Shown here piece after piece: positions 3,724-60,608 of a stretch of 64,000 nucleotides of DNA. A program made the position numbers and the translations under genes. The DNA is from Candidatus Thermochlorobacter sp. (GTDB lineage: Bacteria > Bacteroidota > Chlorobiia > Chlorobiales > Thermochlorobacteraceae). The first letter of the stretch is position 1; every line of letters starts with the position of its first letter. A model generated the notes under the pieces. That model searched no databases. It saw only the letters and a program-made list of their open reading frames with translations, and had not been told where the DNA came from. Where the stretch lies: positions 128,054-192,053 of the forward strand of contig JBKBSK010000001.1 of NCBI GenBank assembly GCA_046291735.1. The letters run 5' to 3'.

Positions 3724-5040
3724 TTAGTAGCGATAGTGCTCCGGTTTGAATGGACCTTTTGGATCGACACCGATATAGGCAGCTTGCTCTGGTGTTAGCT
3801 CTTCAAGCTCTACGCCGAGCTTTTCAAGATGCAGCCTTGCGACCATTTCATCAAGATGCTTTGGCAACACATAGACTTTGTTCTCATACTTATCTGAATT
3901 TTGCCAGAGCTCAATTTGTGCAAGCACTTGGTTAGTGAAAGACATTGACATCACAAATGATGGATGCCCCATTGCCACGCCTAAGTTCACCAAGCGCCCT
4001 TCTGCAAGCACAATAATATCTTTGCCATCGATATTGTAAAGATCGACCTGTGGCTTGATTTGTGTCTTGGTATGTCCATAGTTTTTGTTTAGCCAAGCCA
4101 TATCGATTTCAATATCGAAGTGACCGATGTTGCAGACGACGGTTTTGTCTTTCATCAGTTTGAAGTGCTTGGCGGTTACAATATCACGATTGCCTGTTGC
4201 TGTTACAACAATATCGGCTTGCGGAATAGCGTTTTCCATCTTTTTGACTTCGTAACCATCGATAGCGGCTTGTAGCGCGCAGATAGGATCGACTTCTGTG
4301 ACAATCACGCGCACGCCTGCACTGCTTAGCGATTCAGCCGACCCTTTGCCAACATCGCCATAGCCTGCTACCACCGCTACTTTCCCTGCTAGCATCAAGT
4401 CTGTGCCACGACGAATGGCATCCACCAGCGATTCACGACAGCCGTATTTGTTGTCAAACTTTGATTTTGTAACGCTATCATTGACATTAATTGCTGGCAG
4501 TGGGAGCTTACCGTTTTTCATTCTCTCATAGAGACGATGCACGCCTGTCGTAGTCTCTTCGGAGATTCCTTTGATATTTGGGACAAGTTCGGGATACTTG
4601 TCTAAGACCATATTGGTCAGATCGCCGCCATCATCCAAAATCATATTGAGCGGTTGCCCATCGGGGAAGAAAAGCGTTTGCTCAATACACCAGTCAAATT
4701 CTTCGGCGCTCATGCCTTTCCAGGCATAAACTGGAATACCTGCGGCAGCTATTGCTGCGGCTGCGTGGTCTTGTGTTGAAAAAATGTTGCAGCTCGACCA
4801 TGTTACTTCGGCACCCAGTTCTTTGAGTGTCTCAATCAGCACAGCAGTTTGAATCGTCATATGCAGACAACCCGCAATGCGCGCACCTTTGAGCGGTTTT
4901 TTTGGACCGTATTCTTTGCGAAGTTGCATCAAACCGGGCATTTCCGCTTCTGCCAGACGAATTTCTTTGCGTCCCCATTCTGCAAGTGATATATCTTTGA
5001 CCTTGTAGGGCAATCGTTTTGTTTCAGTTGCTGTTGCCAT
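3724..5040 (-). CDS. ahcY: Adenosylhomocysteinase (SAH hydrolase)
   Basis: Full-length match in character to SAHH: NAD-binding [10 protein letters not shown] and C-terminal PEHYRY. Confidence 0.95.
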
Positions 5041-5091: not shown

Positions 5092-6300
5092 TTATTTGAA
5101 TGCACGCTGCAAGTCTTTCACCTTGTCTAATTTTTCCCAAGGGAACATCTCACGCCCGAAGTGACCGTAAGCCGCGGTGTCTTGATAGCGCCAACCTTTG
5201 GGTTTATGCAGGCTAAAGCGCTCAATGATTGCTAACGGACGCAAGTCGAAAATCTTCTCGACTTTTTCTTGCAGTTCCCCATCGCTGATGTCACTTAGAC
5301 CCGTGCTGTGCGTATTGACATAAATAGATACAGGTCGTGCTACACCAATAGCGTAGGAGACTTGAATGGTGCACTTCTCTGCCAATCCTGCCGCCACGAT
5401 ATTTTTGGCGATGTGTCGCGCAGCGTAAGCAGCACTACGGTCTACTTTTGTTGGGTCTTTACCACTAAAGGCGCCGCCACCGTGTGGTGCAGCACCACCG
5501 TAGGTATCGACGATGATTTTTCTGCCCGTCAGACCTGTATCGCCATGCGGACCGCCGATTTCAAATTTTCCTGTGGGATTGACGAAGAACTTGGTGTTTT
5601 TATCTATTAACTCTTTTGGAATGACTTTGTTGATAGCGCATGCAATGACATCCTCTTTGATTTTGGCTTGCCATTGCTTGTCTGTCATTCCATTTGGTTT
5701 AGGATCGTGCTGCGTAGAGACCACAATGGTATCAACACGCACCACATTATTGCCATCATACTCAAGCGTCACTTGGCTCTTTGCATCAGGACGCAGGTAA
5801 GTCATCTCCTTGCCCTCTTTGCGAATATCTGCCAAACGCTTAACTAAGCGATGCGCAAACATAATCGGTGCCGGCATTAGTTCAGGGGTTTCCTTGCAGG
5901 CATAGCCAAACATCATGCCTTGGTCGCCTGCACCAATACTATCGAGCCGATCTTTATATTTTTCATACTTGTGTCTATCCACCCCCATATTGATATCTGG
6001 TGACTGGGCATGAATCGCAGAGAGAATTCCACAGGACCTTGCTTCAAACATATACTCACCTTTTGTATAGCCAATTTCTTCAATCACCTTGCGCACCAAA
6101 TCGGGCACTTCCACATACGCTTTCGTGGTTACTTCACCACCCACAATCACCTGCCCTGTGGTAACAAAGGTCTCACAAGCCACACGCGACTGGCTATCTT
6201 GCGCTAAAAACGCATCCAAGAGCGCATCGGAAATCTGGTCTGCCACTTTGTCGGGATGACCCGCTGAGACGGACTCTGATGTAAAAAGGTATTTTGCCAT
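5092..6300 (-). CDS. metK: S-adenosylmethionine synthetase
   Basis: [24 protein letters not shown] and [19 protein letters not shown] motifs. Confidence 0.95.
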
Positions 6301-6338
6301 TGATGTACGCAGTTTGCTGGTTTGCTTGAGTTACACGC

Positions 6339-6483
6339 AAAAAAATCTTTATCGCTTCTGCAGCGAAGCCAAGCGAGGTTCACGCGCATGCAGGTCTTGG
6401 AACGGACACGGATTGTCATCGCGGGAACTGCATGCACTTGGCTTGCAGTCTCGACACCGTGTCCATAGATAATGGGATGTCGA
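6339..6483 (-). promoter_or_regulatory. Structured 5' leader RNA of metK-ahcY (copy 1 of a motif shared with the metH leader)
   Basis: Helix TCGACA/TGTCGA encloses the loop CCATTAtcTATGGACACGG. The loop GGACACGG is complementary to CCGTGTCC 45 nt downstream. There is an inner hairpin ACTGCA/TGCAGT and a U7 tract at 6345..6339. Confidence 0.5.
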
Positions 6484-6494
6484 AAGCGTTAATA

Positions 6495-6523
6495 AATATA
6501 CGACAGCGTGTTTTTTTTCGCAA
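6495..6523 (-). promoter_or_regulatory. Sigma70-type promoter for the metK leader
   Basis: Minus strand reads TTGCGA, a 17-nt spacer, then TATATT. It lies about 190 nt upstream of the metK ATG. Confidence 0.45.
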
Positions 6524-49300: not shown

Positions 49301-50215
49301 GCGCATTTGTGCTGAACCTAAGGCGCAGTTCAAGCCAACGCTAAGCAAATTTGGCGCATGTGAAATTGAAATCCAGAAGGCTTCGGTGGTTTGTCCTGAC
49401 AGCGTTCTGCCGCTTTGGTCGACAATCGTGCCTGAAATCATGACAGGAACACGCCGTCCAACCGTGTCGAAGTACTTGCGAATCGCTGAGAGTGCTGCTT
49501 TGGTATTGAGTGTATCGGTAATGGTCTCGATCAGCAAGAGATCTACCCCGCCATCAATGAGACCGCAGATTTGCTCGTAGTATGCCTCAAAGAGTTGGTC
49601 GTAGGTGATGGCGCGAAAGCCGGGGTCGTTGACATCAGGCGACATTGACGCCAGTTTCGTCGTCGGTCCAATCGCCCCTGCCACGAAGCGCGGTTTGTTA
49701 GGCGTCTTCTGCATTATCTCTCGCACTGCTTCTTTAGCCAGCTTTGCCGATTTGAAGTTCATCTCATAGACCAGATGCTCCATCACATAATCTGCTTGCG
49801 AGATACGATTTGCGCTGAATGTGTTGGTTTCAATAATATCCGCGCCGGCTTCGAGATATTGCAGGTGAATTTCTTTAATGATTTGCGGTTGTGTGAGCGA
49901 AAGCAGTTCGTTATTGCCTTTGAGTGTGCCTTTGCTGGGCACAGTGCCATGTGCATGAGCAGGATTAGCACAGCTGTGCCCATTGCGCTCAACACCCGTC
50001 CCCGACTGCGCAGGTGCTCTGTGAAGAACTTCATCGAGCTTGTGCTCCATGGCTTCTGCGATAGGGTCGTGCGGCTGGACAGGATTGAAGTCTTTGAACC
50101 GCTCGCCACGATAATCTTCTTCAGTAAGTTTGTAGCGCTGAATCATCGTCCCCATCGCGCCATCGAGCACAAGGATGCGCTCTTTAAGCAGCTCGTAGAT
50201 TGTCGGCTGTGACAT
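46340..50215 (-). CDS. metH: Cobalamin-dependent methionine synthase
   Basis: All five modules are present: Hcy (GGCCGTTP), pterin, the B12 DxHxxG motif (GDVHDIGKN), cap, and the AdoMet activation domain ([12 protein letters not shown]). Confidence 0.95.
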
Positions 50216-50266
50216 ATCATTAGGTTAAAATTGGACTGCGAAACTGGTGTTTCGGCAAGCGAGGGC

Positions 50267-50301
50267 AAAAAACAGAAAAGCCTCTCCGAAGTGGAAAGGC
50301 T
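50267..50301 (-). terminator. Intrinsic terminator inside the metH leader (attenuator)
   Basis: Minus strand reads AGCCTTTCC-actt-CGGAGAGGCT followed by TTTCTGTTTTTT, about 50 nt upstream of the metH ATG. Confidence 0.6.
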
Positions 50302-50320
50302 GCCGTGTAATTATGATGCT

Positions 50321-50407
50321 GGACACGACCTCCATTTCGGAGCAACTTTCGGGCGCTCGCCGCCGAAAGCCTTTAACGCCGTGTCCATACCTAATGGCGC
50401 GTTAAAG
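50321..50407 (-). promoter_or_regulatory. Structured 5' leader RNA of metH (copy 2 of the metK-leader motif)
   Basis: Helix CTTTAACGC/GCGTTAAAG encloses the loop gCCATTAggTATGGACACG. There is an inner hairpin CTTTCGG/CCGAAAG. A downstream CGTGTCC is complementary to the loop. A TATATT -10 box lies at 50422..50417. Confidence 0.5.
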
Positions 50408-50576
50408 CTAGTGTGCAATATACAGCAGATTTTTGAAAGTGAAAAGTTTCTTCATGCACAACAGGAAGCTCACTCCAACAACCATCTTTTGCTTTAATGC
50501 GTAAGATATTTTACATAACTATAAGCGTACATCTATCGTACGCGGCGACTTTCTCAAGCCAACCTTTGTAAAAGCT

Positions 50577-53297
50577 ATGGTAGTAGAAAAAGACCTTGAG
50601 CGCTCTTTGGCTTGGTTTGCTCTGGATGCTGAACAAGCGTTGGAGCAAGCCAGTGTGTCGCTGTCGCAGGGATTGAGTTCGGAAGAAGTGCGACAACGGC
50701 AAGCAAAATACGGACTGAACATCATTCCTAAGAAAAAGCAAAAAACGCCTTTAGAACTTTTCCTGCAGCAATTTACACAGCCGCTCGTTGTGATTTTGCT
50801 TGTTGCAACCGTTATCACGATGCTCTTACAGGAGTGGGTTGATGCGGCAGTCATCTTTGGCGTTGTGTTTGTTAATGCAATTATCGGCTTTATTCAAGAG
50901 TCAAAGGCGCTCAAAGCTATTGAAGCACTAGCCAAAGCCGTTGCTAGCGAAGCCACTGTGATACGCAATGGTGAAAAGCAGCGCATACCATCGTCAGAGC
51001 TCACGATTGGTGATGTGGTCTTATTACAATCGGGTGATAAAGTGCCTGCCGACTTGCGTCTGGTGCAAACACGTGAACTTCAAATCGATGAATCAGCGCT
51101 CACTGGTGAATCTGTTCCTGTCATCAAACAAATTGCGGCACTCGACTCTGATACTGTGCTAGCAGACCGCACAAACATGGCGTATTCTTCCACGCTTGTT
51201 ACCTATGGCACCGGTACAGGCATTGTTGTTGCAATTGGCAGCAACACTGAAATCGGCAAAATCAATCAGATGATTGCTGAAGCTGATGTATTGGAGACGC
51301 CGCTTACGCAATCTATCGCAAAGTTTAGTAAAGTACTGCTCTATGTGATTTTGGGCTTAGCTGCACTTACCTTTGCGGTTGGGCTACTGCGTGGTGAAAA
51401 GTGGGTTGAGATGTTTATGGCTGCTGTTGCTCTGGCAGTTGGCGCCATTCCCGAAGGCTTGCCTGCTGCGGTTACGATTACCTTAGCAATTGGTGTTGCT
51501 AGAATGGCAAAGCGCAATGCCATCATCCGTAAGTTACCTGCTGTCGAGACACTTGGCAGTGCTTCGGTTATCTGCTCCGACAAAACCGGCACACTGACAC
51601 AAAATCAAATGACCGTGCAGAAAGTCTATGCAGGCGGCATGCTCTACGACGTTACAGGTGTGGGCTACGACCCCAAGGGCGAATTTTTGCAAGGCGAACG
51701 CACTGTTTCGCTTTCATCTAACCTTGCCCTGCAAGAGACCCTGACCTGCGGACTGCTCTGCAACGATTCAAATATCATCACTCTCGACGGGCAAAACAAA
51801 GTAGAAGGCGACCCAACAGAAGGCGCTCTGGTGGTTTCTGCACAGAAAGCCGGTCTTTCACGCAAAACCTTGCTTCAAAGTCTCCCGCGCATCGACACCA
51901 TTCCCTTTGAATCAGCTCATCAATACATGGCTACATTGCACCGGTGCGCAGATAAAGAAAAGTCTATCGCTTATGTCAAAGGTTCAGTAGAACGGCTGTT
52001 AGAGCGTGCCTCTGCCATGCTCTCAGAGCGAGGCGAAATTATTTCGTTAGACAAACACCAAGTGCTCTTGCAGTCCAATGCAATTGCCTCAGAAGGGCTG
52101 CGAGTGCTTGCTTTCGCCTACAAAATTTTTGATGGCTCAAAAACTTCACTTTCGCATGATGACATTTCAGACGACCTTGTTTTCTTAGGGCTACAAGCGA
52201 TGATTGACCCGCCGCGTCCTGAAGCCATTGATGCTGTCGCAACTTGCCAAAGCGCTGGGATTCAAGTCAAGATGATTACGGGCGATCATGAACTTACTGC
52301 ACTTGCTATTGCCAAACGCTTAGGCATTGTACAACAGGATGCCACAGGCGATGCTGTCGTCAATGGCAAATCGCTTGTGACTTTGCCCGAAGAGCGCCTG
52401 CCTGAAGTTGTCAAACGTGTCTCAGTCTTTGCGCGGGTTGCCCCAGAAGACAAACTGCGTCTGGTTAAGGCATTGCAGCAAAATGGCGCTGTTGTTGCTA
52501 TGACAGGCGATGGGGTCAATGATGCGCCCTCGCTTCGGCAAGCCAATATCGGCATTGCCATGGGCATCACCGGTACAGATGTTGCCAAAGAAACAGCCGA
52601 TATGATTCTCACAGACGACAATTTTGCCACGATTGAAGCGGCTGTTGAAGAAGGGCGCAATGTTTATGATAATCTTGTAAAATTTATTACTTGGACGCTG
52701 CCCACAAACTTCGGTGAAGGATTGGTGATTCTAGCATCGGTTGTTGCAGGCTTAACACTTCCGATTTTGCCTGTGCAATTGCTTTGGATTAATATGACGA
52801 CTGCCATCTTGCTCGGCTTGATGCTTGCGTTTGAGCCAAAAGAGCCGGGCATTATGAACCGTCCACCCCGTGATGCCAACGAACCGATTTTAACGACTTC
52901 TCTCGTTGTGAGAATCATCATCGTTGGCACACTGCTTTGTGCTGGCGCACTGCTCTTCTTTGAACTTGCCCTGCAGGCAGGACGCACCGACGCCGAAGCA
53001 CGCACGATTGCGGTCAATATCTTCGTGCTGGGCGAGCTGCTCTATCTTTTCAACTGCCGCTCCTTGCGCTACTCTATGTTCAAAATCGGTCTCTTTTCCA
53101 ATCCGTTAATTTGGGTCGGAGTCGCCGGTATGCTGCTGCTGCAACTGCTTTATACCTATGTGCCTTTTATGAATAGCGCTTTTCAAAGCGCGCCACTGAC
53201 ACTCGAAGATTGGGCTATCTCACTTGTGCCCGGATTTGTGATTTATGTCGTGATTGGCTTTTTGAAATACTGGCGCTATGGCAGACATGCAAAATGA
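50577..53297 (+). CDS. Cation-translocating P-type ATPase (type II, Ca2+/Mg2+-like)
   Basis: CSDKTGTLT phosphorylation motif, TGES, GDGVNDAPSL, and 10 TM helices. Confidence 0.9.
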   Translation: MVVEKDLERSLAWFALDAEQALEQASVSLSQGLSSEEVRQRQAKYGLNIIPKKKQKTPLELFLQQFTQPLVVILLVATVITMLLQEWVDAAVIFGVVFVNAIIGFIQESKALKAIEALAKAVASEATVIRNGEKQRIPSSELTIGDVVLLQSGDKVPADLRLVQTRELQIDESALTGESVPVIKQIAALDSDTVLADRTNMAYSSTLVTYGTGTGIVVAIGSNTEIGKINQMIAEADVLETPLTQSIAKFSKVLLYVILGLAALTFAVGLLRGEKWVEMFMAAVALAVGAIPEGLPAAVTITLAIGVARMAKRNAIIRKLPAVETLGSASVICSDKTGTLTQNQMTVQKVYAGGMLYDVTGVGYDPKGEFLQGERTVSLSSNLALQETLTCGLLCNDSNIITLDGQNKVEGDPTEGALVVSAQKAGLSRKTLLQSLPRIDTIPFESAHQYMATLHRCADKEKSIAYVKGSVERLLERASAMLSERGEIISLDKHQVLLQSNAIASEGLRVLAFAYKIFDGSKTSLSHDDISDDLVFLGLQAMIDPPRPEAIDAVATCQSAGIQVKMITGDHELTALAIAKRLGIVQQDATGDAVVNGKSLVTLPEERLPEVVKRVSVFARVAPEDKLRLVKALQQNGAVVAMTGDGVNDAPSLRQANIGIAMGITGTDVAKETADMILTDDNFATIEAAVEEGRNVYDNLVKFITWTLPTNFGEGLVILASVVAGLTLPILPVQLLWINMTTAILLGLMLAFEPKEPGIMNRPPRDANEPILTTSLVVRIIIVGTLLCAGALLFFELALQAGRTDAEARTIAVNIFVLGELLYLFNCRSLRYSMFKIGLFSNPLIWVGVAGMLLLQLLYTYVPFMNSAFQSAPLTLEDWAISLVPGFVIYVVIGFLKYWRYGRHAK

Positions 53298-60445: not shown

Positions 60446-60518
60446 TGGGGCTATAGCTCAGTTGGTAGAGCGCTGCAATCGCACTGCAGAGGTCAGGAGT
60501 TCGAATCTCCTTAGCTCC
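60446..60518 (+). tRNA. tRNA-Ala (anticodon CGC)
   Basis: Cloverleaf: acceptor GGGGCTA/TAGCTCC with the G3:U70 alanine identity pair, D-arm GCTCAGTTGGTAGAGC, anticodon loop atCGCac, and T-arm AGGAGTTCGAATCTCCT. Coordinates may be +1. Confidence 0.9.
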
Positions 60519-60608
60519 ACATACTTGTGCATCTTTCACCCATCTTTGAGTCGATGCTGATTGAGATACTGTTTGTGAGTTTTTGACCTGCCTAAAGCAG
60601 TTGTCCTT

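Follow-up and report, generated by a model that had tools for sequence, protein, structure and literature searches.

A diverged second SAM-Chlorobi RNA with an intrinsic terminator precedes metH in Candidatus Thermochlorobacter

Does the SAM-Chlorobi RNA (Rfam RF01724), an orphan riboswitch candidate, control genes of the methyl cycle other than metK and ahcY? The family was described upstream of metK–ahcY by Weinberg et al. 2010 (PMC2864571), was placed at 11 sites in 11 Chlorobiales genomes by Sun et al. 2013 (PMC3766115) and was described as regulating metK–ahcY by Leyn et al. 2014 (PMC4239095); we found no link to metH (the gene for B12-dependent methionine synthase) in the searchable literature, in which the motif is placed only upstream of metK–ahcY. 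The question is raised by the leader of metH in a 64,000-nucleotide (nt) stretch of a Candidatus Thermochlorobacter sp. genome (assembly GCA_046291735.1, contig JBKBSK010000001.1, positions 128,054 to 192,053; this whole stretch is hereafter called the window). An earlier interpretation based on the letters alone (hereafter, the sequence-only reading) had proposed that a second copy of the metK-leader motif lies here, that it is coupled to an intrinsic terminator and that its segments can pair in alternative ways; its premise that SAM-Chlorobi is known from metK/ahcY is borne out by the three papers above. Every element that it listed is present on the minus strand where it had been placed, and the leader (50410..50267) consists, in order, of a promoter-like TATATT box, a P1/P1a hairpin with the core CCAUUAGGUAUGGACACGG, two further hairpins (P2 and P3), the tail CGUGUCC, the box ACACGGC and a strong intrinsic terminator (Table 1). 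We regard this RNA as a diverged SAM-Chlorobi paralogue (a new member, and a divergent subclass, of this candidate family) and, most likely, as a cis-acting transcription attenuator with mutually exclusive pairings. Such an extension of the regulon to metH appears to be unreported so far.

Kinship with the metK copy is indicated by both the Rfam model and the sequence pattern. RF01724 aligns to the metH leader from end to end (50404..50319 over model positions 1–87; 32.3 bits, with E=2.3e-4 when 451 nt were searched), and the pattern CCATTANNTATGGACACG-N35-65-GTGTCC, with its 18-nt core and tail matched exactly, occurs exactly twice in the window compared with 0.00 expected from 100 shuffles. 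A covariance model built here likewise returned two copies only and no third one in the 64 kb, the next match reaching 10 bits (E 1.4), so that the proposed second copy is upheld. As in SAM-Chlorobi, P1 encloses CCAUUAnnUAUGG followed by ACACGG (the exact core, 50397..50379), a variable and covarying P2 follows, and the single-stranded 3′ tail CCGUGUCC, (C)CGUGUCC, is represented by UCGUGUCCA; tail variants occur in relatives, namely AAGUGUCC in a group that we call L018-type leaders after locus L018, GCGUCC in locus L131 and GUGUCU in locus L130. The phylum is shared, as is the position directly after a promoter of the TA..TTTG type, and the gene that follows belongs to the methyl cycle, although it is metH rather than metK or ahcY. 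Further differences are the lower Rfam scores (32.3 bits here, 20–22 in relatives), a P1 that is shifted by one register (1 nt off the Chlorobiaceae consensus in the Rfam model alignment), the additional P3, and the explicit intrinsic terminator with a sensor-mimic box; the published description of SAM-Chlorobi (PMC2864571) includes neither an expression platform nor a sensor:tail pairing in its consensus structure line.

The score of the metH leader falls below the RF01724 gathering score (32.3 versus 35 bits). This score was trained on metK leaders of Chlorobiaceae and serves as an operational threshold; it does not describe a structural feature. Routine annotation therefore misses the metH leader, and a whole-window Rfam search at the gathering threshold reports a single SAM-Chlorobi RNA, the metK copy. 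The same holds for relatives: narrow searches gave 21.5 bits for locus L035 and 20.5 bits for L018, and seven genomic metH copies all escaped a 50-kb search at E≤1, whereas the metK copies of the same genomes were recovered with 39–51 bits. The curated Rfam model thus overlooks the whole metH subclass. Just upstream, the site TTTTCA-17-TATATT is probably the promoter of the metH leader, given that TATATT(T/C)G stands at the same offset (approximately 12 nt before P1) in all metH leaders and also before the metK copy of the window (6500..6495); strong Bacteroidetes-type TTG...TAnnnTTTG promoters were annotated before members of the SAM-Chlorobi family (Weinberg 2010, PMC2864571).

A scan for the core-plus-tail pattern in one genome per species (185,579 species) returned 117 loci: 104 precede metK, 7 precede metH, 4 are too near a contig end to be assigned and 2 are chance matches. 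Two candidates were discarded: L040 ('bacterium SKW228'), considered as a third gene context, scored 24.7 bits with our own model but has no Rfam match and lies inside an open reading frame (ORF) that resembles a penicillin-binding protein (PBP), and L099 (Furfurilactobacillus; 20.7 bits) is a chance match. The seven metH loci belong to Candidatus Thermochlorobacter aerophilum, GBChlB and Chloroherpetonaceae/Thermochlorobacteriaceae metagenome-assembled genomes (MAGs), and each of these genomes has a metK copy as well. Nine more metH leaders (three of them new sequences; the loci include hot-spring metagenomes) and two metK leaders came from a scan of metagenomes that favoured the metH class. 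Through a protein route, we also retrieved the DNA upstream of more distant MetH homologues at eight loci. A leader is present at L133 and L131 (both 73% MetH identity) and at L130 (70%); no leader was found at L134 (74%; the upstream sequence is just 144 nt), L135 (72%), L136 (69%), L132 (68%) or L129 (Chloroherpeton thalassium; 67%). In total, a homologous element thus precedes metH at 19 further loci (7 in species genomes, 9 on metagenome contigs and 3 found through MetH homologues), all of which bear a terminator. The regulon extension put forward by the sequence-only reading is supported by these conserved leaders, but only within limits: the metH copy is restricted to a Thermochlorobacter/Chloroherpetonaceae subclade and is not Chlorobi-wide. 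No Chlorobiaceae MetH was among the best 120 MetH homologues. The most divergent metH leader (L130:2822-2965, plus strand) scores 23.8 bits with our own covariance model, and as variants of this kind escape pattern searches, our counts may understate the extent of the family. The sole cultured Chloroherpeton, C. thalassium ATCC 35110, has a motif-less region upstream of metH (L129:2540-3000) and is missing among the metK pattern matches; it may regulate its methyl-cycle genes in another way or by means of a core that has diverged.

Some metH annotations contain the leader itself. The JGI MetH calls P0007, P0009, P0010 and P0012 (1351 amino acids (aa)) and P0005 (1312 aa; compare L127) start at the AUG of the sensor segment (UAUGGACACGG) and translate the leader and terminator, which yields an N-terminus MDTALRAFGKRDVRELLRSG...DMAQPSIY that begins with MDTALRAFGK. 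This 60-aa N-terminal extension is an annotation artefact, and such over-long metH ORFs conceal the leader from searches that are confined to intergenic regions.

The coupling to an intrinsic terminator is confirmed by a scanner call in the window (9 pairs, 5 of them G-C, with a loop of 5; duplex energy −13.9 kcal/mol) and by a terminator in all metH leaders (8 of 8 in the first set and in those found later as well). Their stems are nearly alike (AAGCCUUUCC...GGGAAGGCUU or AGCCUUUCC...GGAGAGGCU). An explicit terminator is not exclusive to metH leaders, as eight metK leaders from the same deep-branching lineages of Chlorobi carry a near-identical one (AAGCCUUUUC...GAAAAGGCUU); by the same criteria, 80 of 95 Chlorobiaceae metK leaders have none, and the remaining 15 have short stems of mostly 5–6 bp. 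Given the likeness of the terminators in the metH leaders and the clade metK leaders, we infer that the whole leader, including its platform, was duplicated from metK to metH, and that the metH copy probably arose from a terminator-bearing metK leader in the ancestor of lineages of the Thermochlorobacter/Chloroherpetonaceae type. In the window itself, the metK leader lacks a canonical terminator (scanner), unlike the metK leaders of sister lineages, which suggests a different or degenerate expression platform. Within this metK leader (6300..6401, minus strand), a downstream CUGCAUGC repeats and complements the P2 3′ arm GCAUGCAG, and the corresponding leader of Ca. T. aerophilum (L036) is similar.

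Other platform arrangements are seen across the family. The L018-type metH leaders (L018, L046, L057, L084, L092, L124, L131 and L133) have an extra hairpin GCCGC...GCGGC between tail and box, and a tail-to-terminator distance of 56–80 nt versus 25–29 nt in window-type leaders; in L092, the extra hairpin comes with tandem AAGUGUUUCAGC repeats. Approximately 25 nt past the tail, Chlorobiaceae metK leaders (L001–L117) carry a box CAC(G/A/U)GAAAAnCUUUCC that is complementary to the tail and its 5′ flank (GGAAGUUUUUCCGUG). This box, which lies outside the Rfam model and is followed by U-rich sequence, has a mean z of −2.4 relative to shuffles (n=95) and may be the expression platform in these organisms. 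A general occurrence of the exact ACACG box in Chlorobiaceae metK leaders was considered and rejected (14 of 95 versus 6.8 expected); in its place, these leaders have the longer box just described.

Is the structure maintained by selection at the level of RNA? A plain MAFFT alignment analysed with RNAalifold gave only the long-range helix that the search pattern imposes, a failure due to differences in the register of P1 and P2 between clades, and it was replaced by a covariance-model alignment with explicit structure of 102 family members. In this alignment, 87% of cells in P1, P1a and P2 are paired, compared with 23–41% in slid-partner controls, and compensatory changes are found at 15 of the 19 pairs, values that none of 500 shuffles matched. 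All seven P1 pairs show compensatory changes (again matched in 0 of 500 shuffles), all eight outer P2 pairs are likewise compensated, and at one P1 position U-G is the commonest pair (75 of 102 sequences), which is a strand-specific, RNA-level pair. Among the 12 distinct metH leaders, P1a is paired in 100% of cells (slid controls, 17–38%), with two compensatory pairs contributed by L130 (CCGA...UCGG) and 3 of 500 shuffles matching. The equivalents of P3 differ between relatives (CUCCG-AAG-CGGAG, UUCCG-AAA-CGGAG and ACGG-GAAAG-CCGU).

What would such a structure decide? In minimum-energy folds, the sensor (the segment formed by the P1a 3′ strand and adjoining loop) pairs with the tail in a long-range helix (UGGACACGG with CGUGUCCA) that excludes P1a; this helix has 8 bp in the window leader and 11 bp in L018-type leaders (UCUAUGGACAC/GUGUCCAUAGA). 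Since the tail pairs with a loop that is closed by outer P1, the topology suggests that the sensor:tail helix and outer P1 could coexist as an H-type pseudoknot. When P1a is kept during folding, all eight metH leaders of the first set instead put the tail on the box that copies the sensor (ACACGG in the window; GCACGG, GCAUGG or GACAC(A/G) elsewhere), and the helix runs through GGAG or GGGAAAG into the 5′ arm of the terminator, to which the 3′ arm of P3 is complementary in the window. Eight metK leaders of the clade bear a terminator. For transcripts of these leaders cut before the terminator 3′ arm, the antiterminator is the minimum-free-energy structure without constraints in seven cases, and the eighth (L078) forms the same tail:5′-arm helix in a more extended shape; at full length, most of these transcripts change to sensor:tail plus terminator. 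In each of the 20 leaders compared, the duplex of the tail with the box and 5′ arm is stronger than that of shuffled tails (mean z of about −2.0 for metH and −2.4 for metK), and its energy is −13.4 kcal/mol with a leader's own partner versus −9.4 kcal/mol with the cross-gene partner.

Two divergent leaders, which were found without the core pattern through MetH homologues, bear on these pairings. In L131, one position is altered in all three partners (sensor GGACGC, tail GCGUCC and box GACGC), and L011, the metK leader of that genome (both lie in assembly JANWWM/SKYG21), retains the canonical GGACAC/GUGUCC, which argues for pairing in cis over a shared trans-acting factor. In L130, P1a is CCGA-UAUCU-UCGG and the tail is GUGUCUGAAGA (CUGAAGA) in place of GUGUCCAUAGA, so that P1a and the 11-bp sensor:tail helix both remain paired, and the pre-terminator box is not ACAC but UCUUC, a copy of the leader's own sensor UCUUCGG. 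Among the 12 distinct metH leaders, the sensor:tail helix is paired in 84% of cells (slid controls, 24–55%) with four compensatory pairs, and 0 of 500 shuffles reached this percentage. The eight tail:box pairs are paired in 65.6% of cells (slid controls, 15–45%; reached by 8 of 500 shuffles) with one compensatory change; for the four core pairs, 46 of 48 cells are paired, and the changes there comprise one compensatory change (L131) and seven wobble-type ones. The compensation of sensor:tail and tail:box is suggestive of P1a, sensor:tail and tail:box as mutually exclusive pairings, as the sequence-only reading had anticipated for GGACACG/CGTGTCC and the ACACGGC box.

On this basis, the leader is most likely an attenuator of the following kind. 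The sensor UGGACACGG would either stay in the P1/P1a hairpin or pair with the downstream tail CGUGUCCA. A tail that is free of the sensor would pair with the sensor-mimic box ACACGG beside the terminator, and the GGAG located 5′ of the tail would extend this helix into the terminator 5′ arm CUUUCC to form an antiterminator; otherwise, the terminator (AGCCUUUCC/GGAGAGGCU with its U-run) would form and transcription would end 51 nt before the start codon. Capture of the tail by the sensor would be set by a methyl-cycle signal, possibly a small molecule and, with lower probability, a protein. The genes concerned (metK, ahcY and metH) jointly form the methyl cycle and correspond to the core set of the SAH-responsive SahR regulon (PMC4239095). 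We prefer an OFF switch, in which the signal would stabilize the pseudoknot and the terminator would follow.

Several observations weigh against this attenuator. Published in-line probing of four Chlorobium tepidum metK-leader constructs detected no binding of SAM or SAH (PMC2864571); the 'SAM' in SAM-Chlorobi is a name only. The covariation of the switch helices comes from approximately two independent lineages (L130 and L131), the statistics for tail:box are weak when taken as a whole (pairing in 65.6% of cells, with the compensatory count reached by 47 of 500 shuffles), and the invariance of the core in pattern-derived sets is no evidence, as the search patterns required the core. One published seed, NC_007514 (Chlorobium chlorochromatii), has an uncompensated mismatch between its sensor GGUCAC and tail GUGUCC (PMC2864571 supplement). 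In the window leader, moreover, the ACACGGC:CGUGU pairing that the sequence-only reading had put forward as an alternative can coexist with the terminator, which is kept in both full-length states (−52.5 kcal/mol with tail:box versus −54.7 kcal/mol with sensor:tail); the sole competitor of the terminator is a weak outer helix, so that any read-through would need a kinetic basis. As long as the 3′ arm is still untranscribed, only 1.8–2.4 kcal/mol separate the two states in this leader, a range that a ligand could tip according to these folding energies.

How the signal is read can be envisioned in other ways. Under one tentative proposal, the SAM-Chlorobi family including the metH copy would be a metabolite riboswitch with an H-type pseudoknot aptamer, the ligand of which is neither SAM nor SAH (for example, homocysteine, methionine, 5-methyl-tetrahydrofolate or adenosine); such a ligand would explain the negative probing of 2010. 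Perhaps equally conceivable, and likewise well short of probable, is an ON switch in which an effector such as SAH or homocysteine stabilizes P1/P1a, leaving the tail free for the box and the 5′ arm so that read-through follows. A regulon of ahcY, metH and metK does match SAH-responsive systems that switch on methyl-cycle recycling (for example, the SahR core regulon), termination is the thermodynamic default of every metH leader by 11–17 kcal/mol at full length, as would suit an activator, and P1a is maintained through compensatory change in L130; however, the C. tepidum constructs showed no SAH binding, metK is not controlled by SAH riboswitches, and a 4-bp P1a (−1.9 kcal/mol) would need substantial ligand energy against a competitor of 8–11 bp. 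That the same RNA and terminator respond instead to a protein (an attenuation factor or methyl-cycle enzyme that reads the invariant CCAUUAnnUAUGGACACGG hairpin and controls tail capture) seems to us rather unlikely. The negative SAM and SAH probing would fit this idea, as would the conservation of the hairpin loop and internal loop sequence far past the needs of pairing, which is typical of protein-binding sites, and the original authors considered factor binding (the flag 'cov TFBS' in the table of PMC2864571). Yet none of the loci that we examined has a linked gene for a candidate protein, and the change of the recognition sequence together with its partners in L131 and L130, next to a canonical metK leader in the genome of L131, fits intramolecular pairing better.

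Two readings that do without an RNA switch were rejected. One is a DNA operator in which GGACACGG and CCGTGTCC serve as inverted half-sites for a repressor that forms a roadblock downstream of the promoter; although the two boxes are a perfect inverted repeat and the original authors set a 'TFBS' flag, the half-site spacing varies (47–61 nt), the box occurs as ACACG, GCACG or GCAUG, which are paired solely as RNA, the orientation is always that of the downstream gene and the terminator always follows in metH leaders. Decisive here are the intervening P1 and P2, which covary as helices with abundant G-U pairs that would be mismatches in DNA, and we regard an operator as highly improbable. At least as remote is attenuation of the leader-peptide or T-box type by way of the AUG within UAUGGAC. 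The sensor does contain an AUG, at which some gene callers start metH (the 1351-aa calls), but the putative peptides vary from 6 to 64 aa without a conserved stop and are not Met-rich, and L130 has UCG where the AUG is expected; together with the lack of an Rfam T-box match and a P2 that covaries as a helix and not as codons, this leaves such an attenuator with the smallest chance of all the readings weighed here. The attenuator with an OFF switch, as outlined above, is the reading that we prefer.

At E≤10, the only Rfam matches of the leader region are SAM-Chlorobi and a spurious snoRNA match of 16 bits, and the models for SAH, SAM-I, SAM-II, SAM-V and SAM-SAH riboswitches and the T-box gave no match there. 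The sequence-only reading had seen no B12-box, and indeed a cobalamin riboswitch is not matched at E≤10 in 50150..50600, nor at the gathering threshold in the whole window; the leader shares with that class its position before a methionine synthase gene, but metH encodes the enzyme that depends on B12, and B12 does not normally repress it, whereas it is metE that carries a cobalamin riboswitch in Chlorobium (PMC8620254). The SAH riboswitch (RF01057) and SahR resemble the present case in controlling methyl-cycle recycling genes (ahcY and metF at the core of the former, with metH in some taxa; ahcY, metH, metF and metK in the core regulon of the latter; PMC4239095), yet the SAH riboswitch never controls metK and has no match in the metH leader, and SahR is a protein, a repressor that responds to SAH.

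The successive exclusive pairings, with a terminator just upstream of the start codon, recall trp-type attenuators (1:2, 2:3 and 3:4) and riboswitch platforms, except that the metH leader has no leader peptide and that an extra upstream hairpin (P1a) competes for segment 1. The H-type pseudoknot riboswitches SAM-II and SAM-V, regulators of methionine and SAM genes, have a 3′ tail that binds the loop of a 5′ hairpin, and expression depends on the capture of this tail. The metH leader offers a topological analogy only, as it differs in the large hairpins P2 and P3 between the partners and in its terminator platform.

Table 1. Coordinates of the metH leader, the metK copy and adjoining genes in the window.
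Feature	Position	Strand	Basis or remark
Promoter-like site, TTTTCA + 17-nt spacer + TATATT	50417..50445 (TATATT, 50422..50417)	minus	Standard consensus scanner
P1 helix, 9 bp, CTTTAACGC (50407..50399) with GCGTTAAAG (50379..50371)	50371..50407	minus	Encloses P1a and sensor (gCCATTAGGTATGGACACG; CCATTAGGTATGGACACG)
P1a hairpin, CCAU-UAGGU-AUGG	50385..50397	minus	Sequence inspection and Rfam alignment
Sensor, UGGACACGG	50379..50387	minus	P1a 3′ strand, ACAC internal loop and first G of P1 3′ strand; complementary to tail
P2 hairpin, GGCTTTCGG...CCGAAAGTT	50344..50371	minus	Includes CTTTCGG/CCGAAAG (50369..50346)
P3 mini-hairpin, CUCC-GAAAU-GGAG	50330..50342	minus	Contains second CCGAAA; outside Rfam model
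Tail, UCGUGUCCA	50320..50328 (CGTGTCC, 50327..50321)	minus	Pairs with sensor or pre-terminator box
Pre-terminator box, ACACGGC	50302..50308	minus	Repeats sensor sequence; abuts terminator stem
Intrinsic terminator, AGCCTTTCC-acttc-GGAGAGGCT (50301..50279) + TTTCTGTTTTTT to 50267	50267..50301	minus	Standard scanner
metH, B12-dependent methionine synthase, 1291 aa	46340..50215	minus	All five MetH Pfam domains; ATG at 50215, 51 nt past the T-run of the terminator
P-type ATPase, upstream neighbour of metH	50577..53297	plus	Divergently transcribed
Canonical SAM-Chlorobi RNA (copy A)	6402..6482	minus	Rfam RF01724, 47.0 bits (gathering score 35)
metK, downstream of copy A	6300..5092	minus	MetK confirmed by Pfam
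ahcY, downstream of copy A	5040..3724	minus	AhcY confirmed by Pfam

As the upstream neighbour of metH, a P-type ATPase gene, is divergently transcribed, the terminator belongs to the metH leader and to no other gene. The MetH of the window is 100% identical to a protein annotated as 'MAG: Candidatus Thermochlorobacter sp.'. A tRNA gene at 60447..60519 (plus strand; Rfam tRNA, 69.7 bits) is unrelated to the leader.

Since 2010, SAM-Chlorobi has been confined to one gene context (metK–ahcY), with no ligand and no described expression platform. As paralogues of riboswitches on genes of the same pathway are common, a metH leader is unsurprising in kind; as a third target gene, however, metH closes the methyl cycle (MetK, methyltransferases, AhcY and MetH), which narrows the plausible signals to methyl-cycle metabolites. 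The unambiguous intrinsic terminators make termination assays possible, a more functional read-out than in-line probing, and L130 and L131 are natural variants that show the partners of each segment and provide a ready-made mutational design. If the family does sense a metabolite other than SAM or SAH, the Thermochlorobacter leaders with their terminators would at last provide constructs with which to identify the ligand. The metH leaders thus give better experimental handles on the 15-year-old question of what this motif senses.

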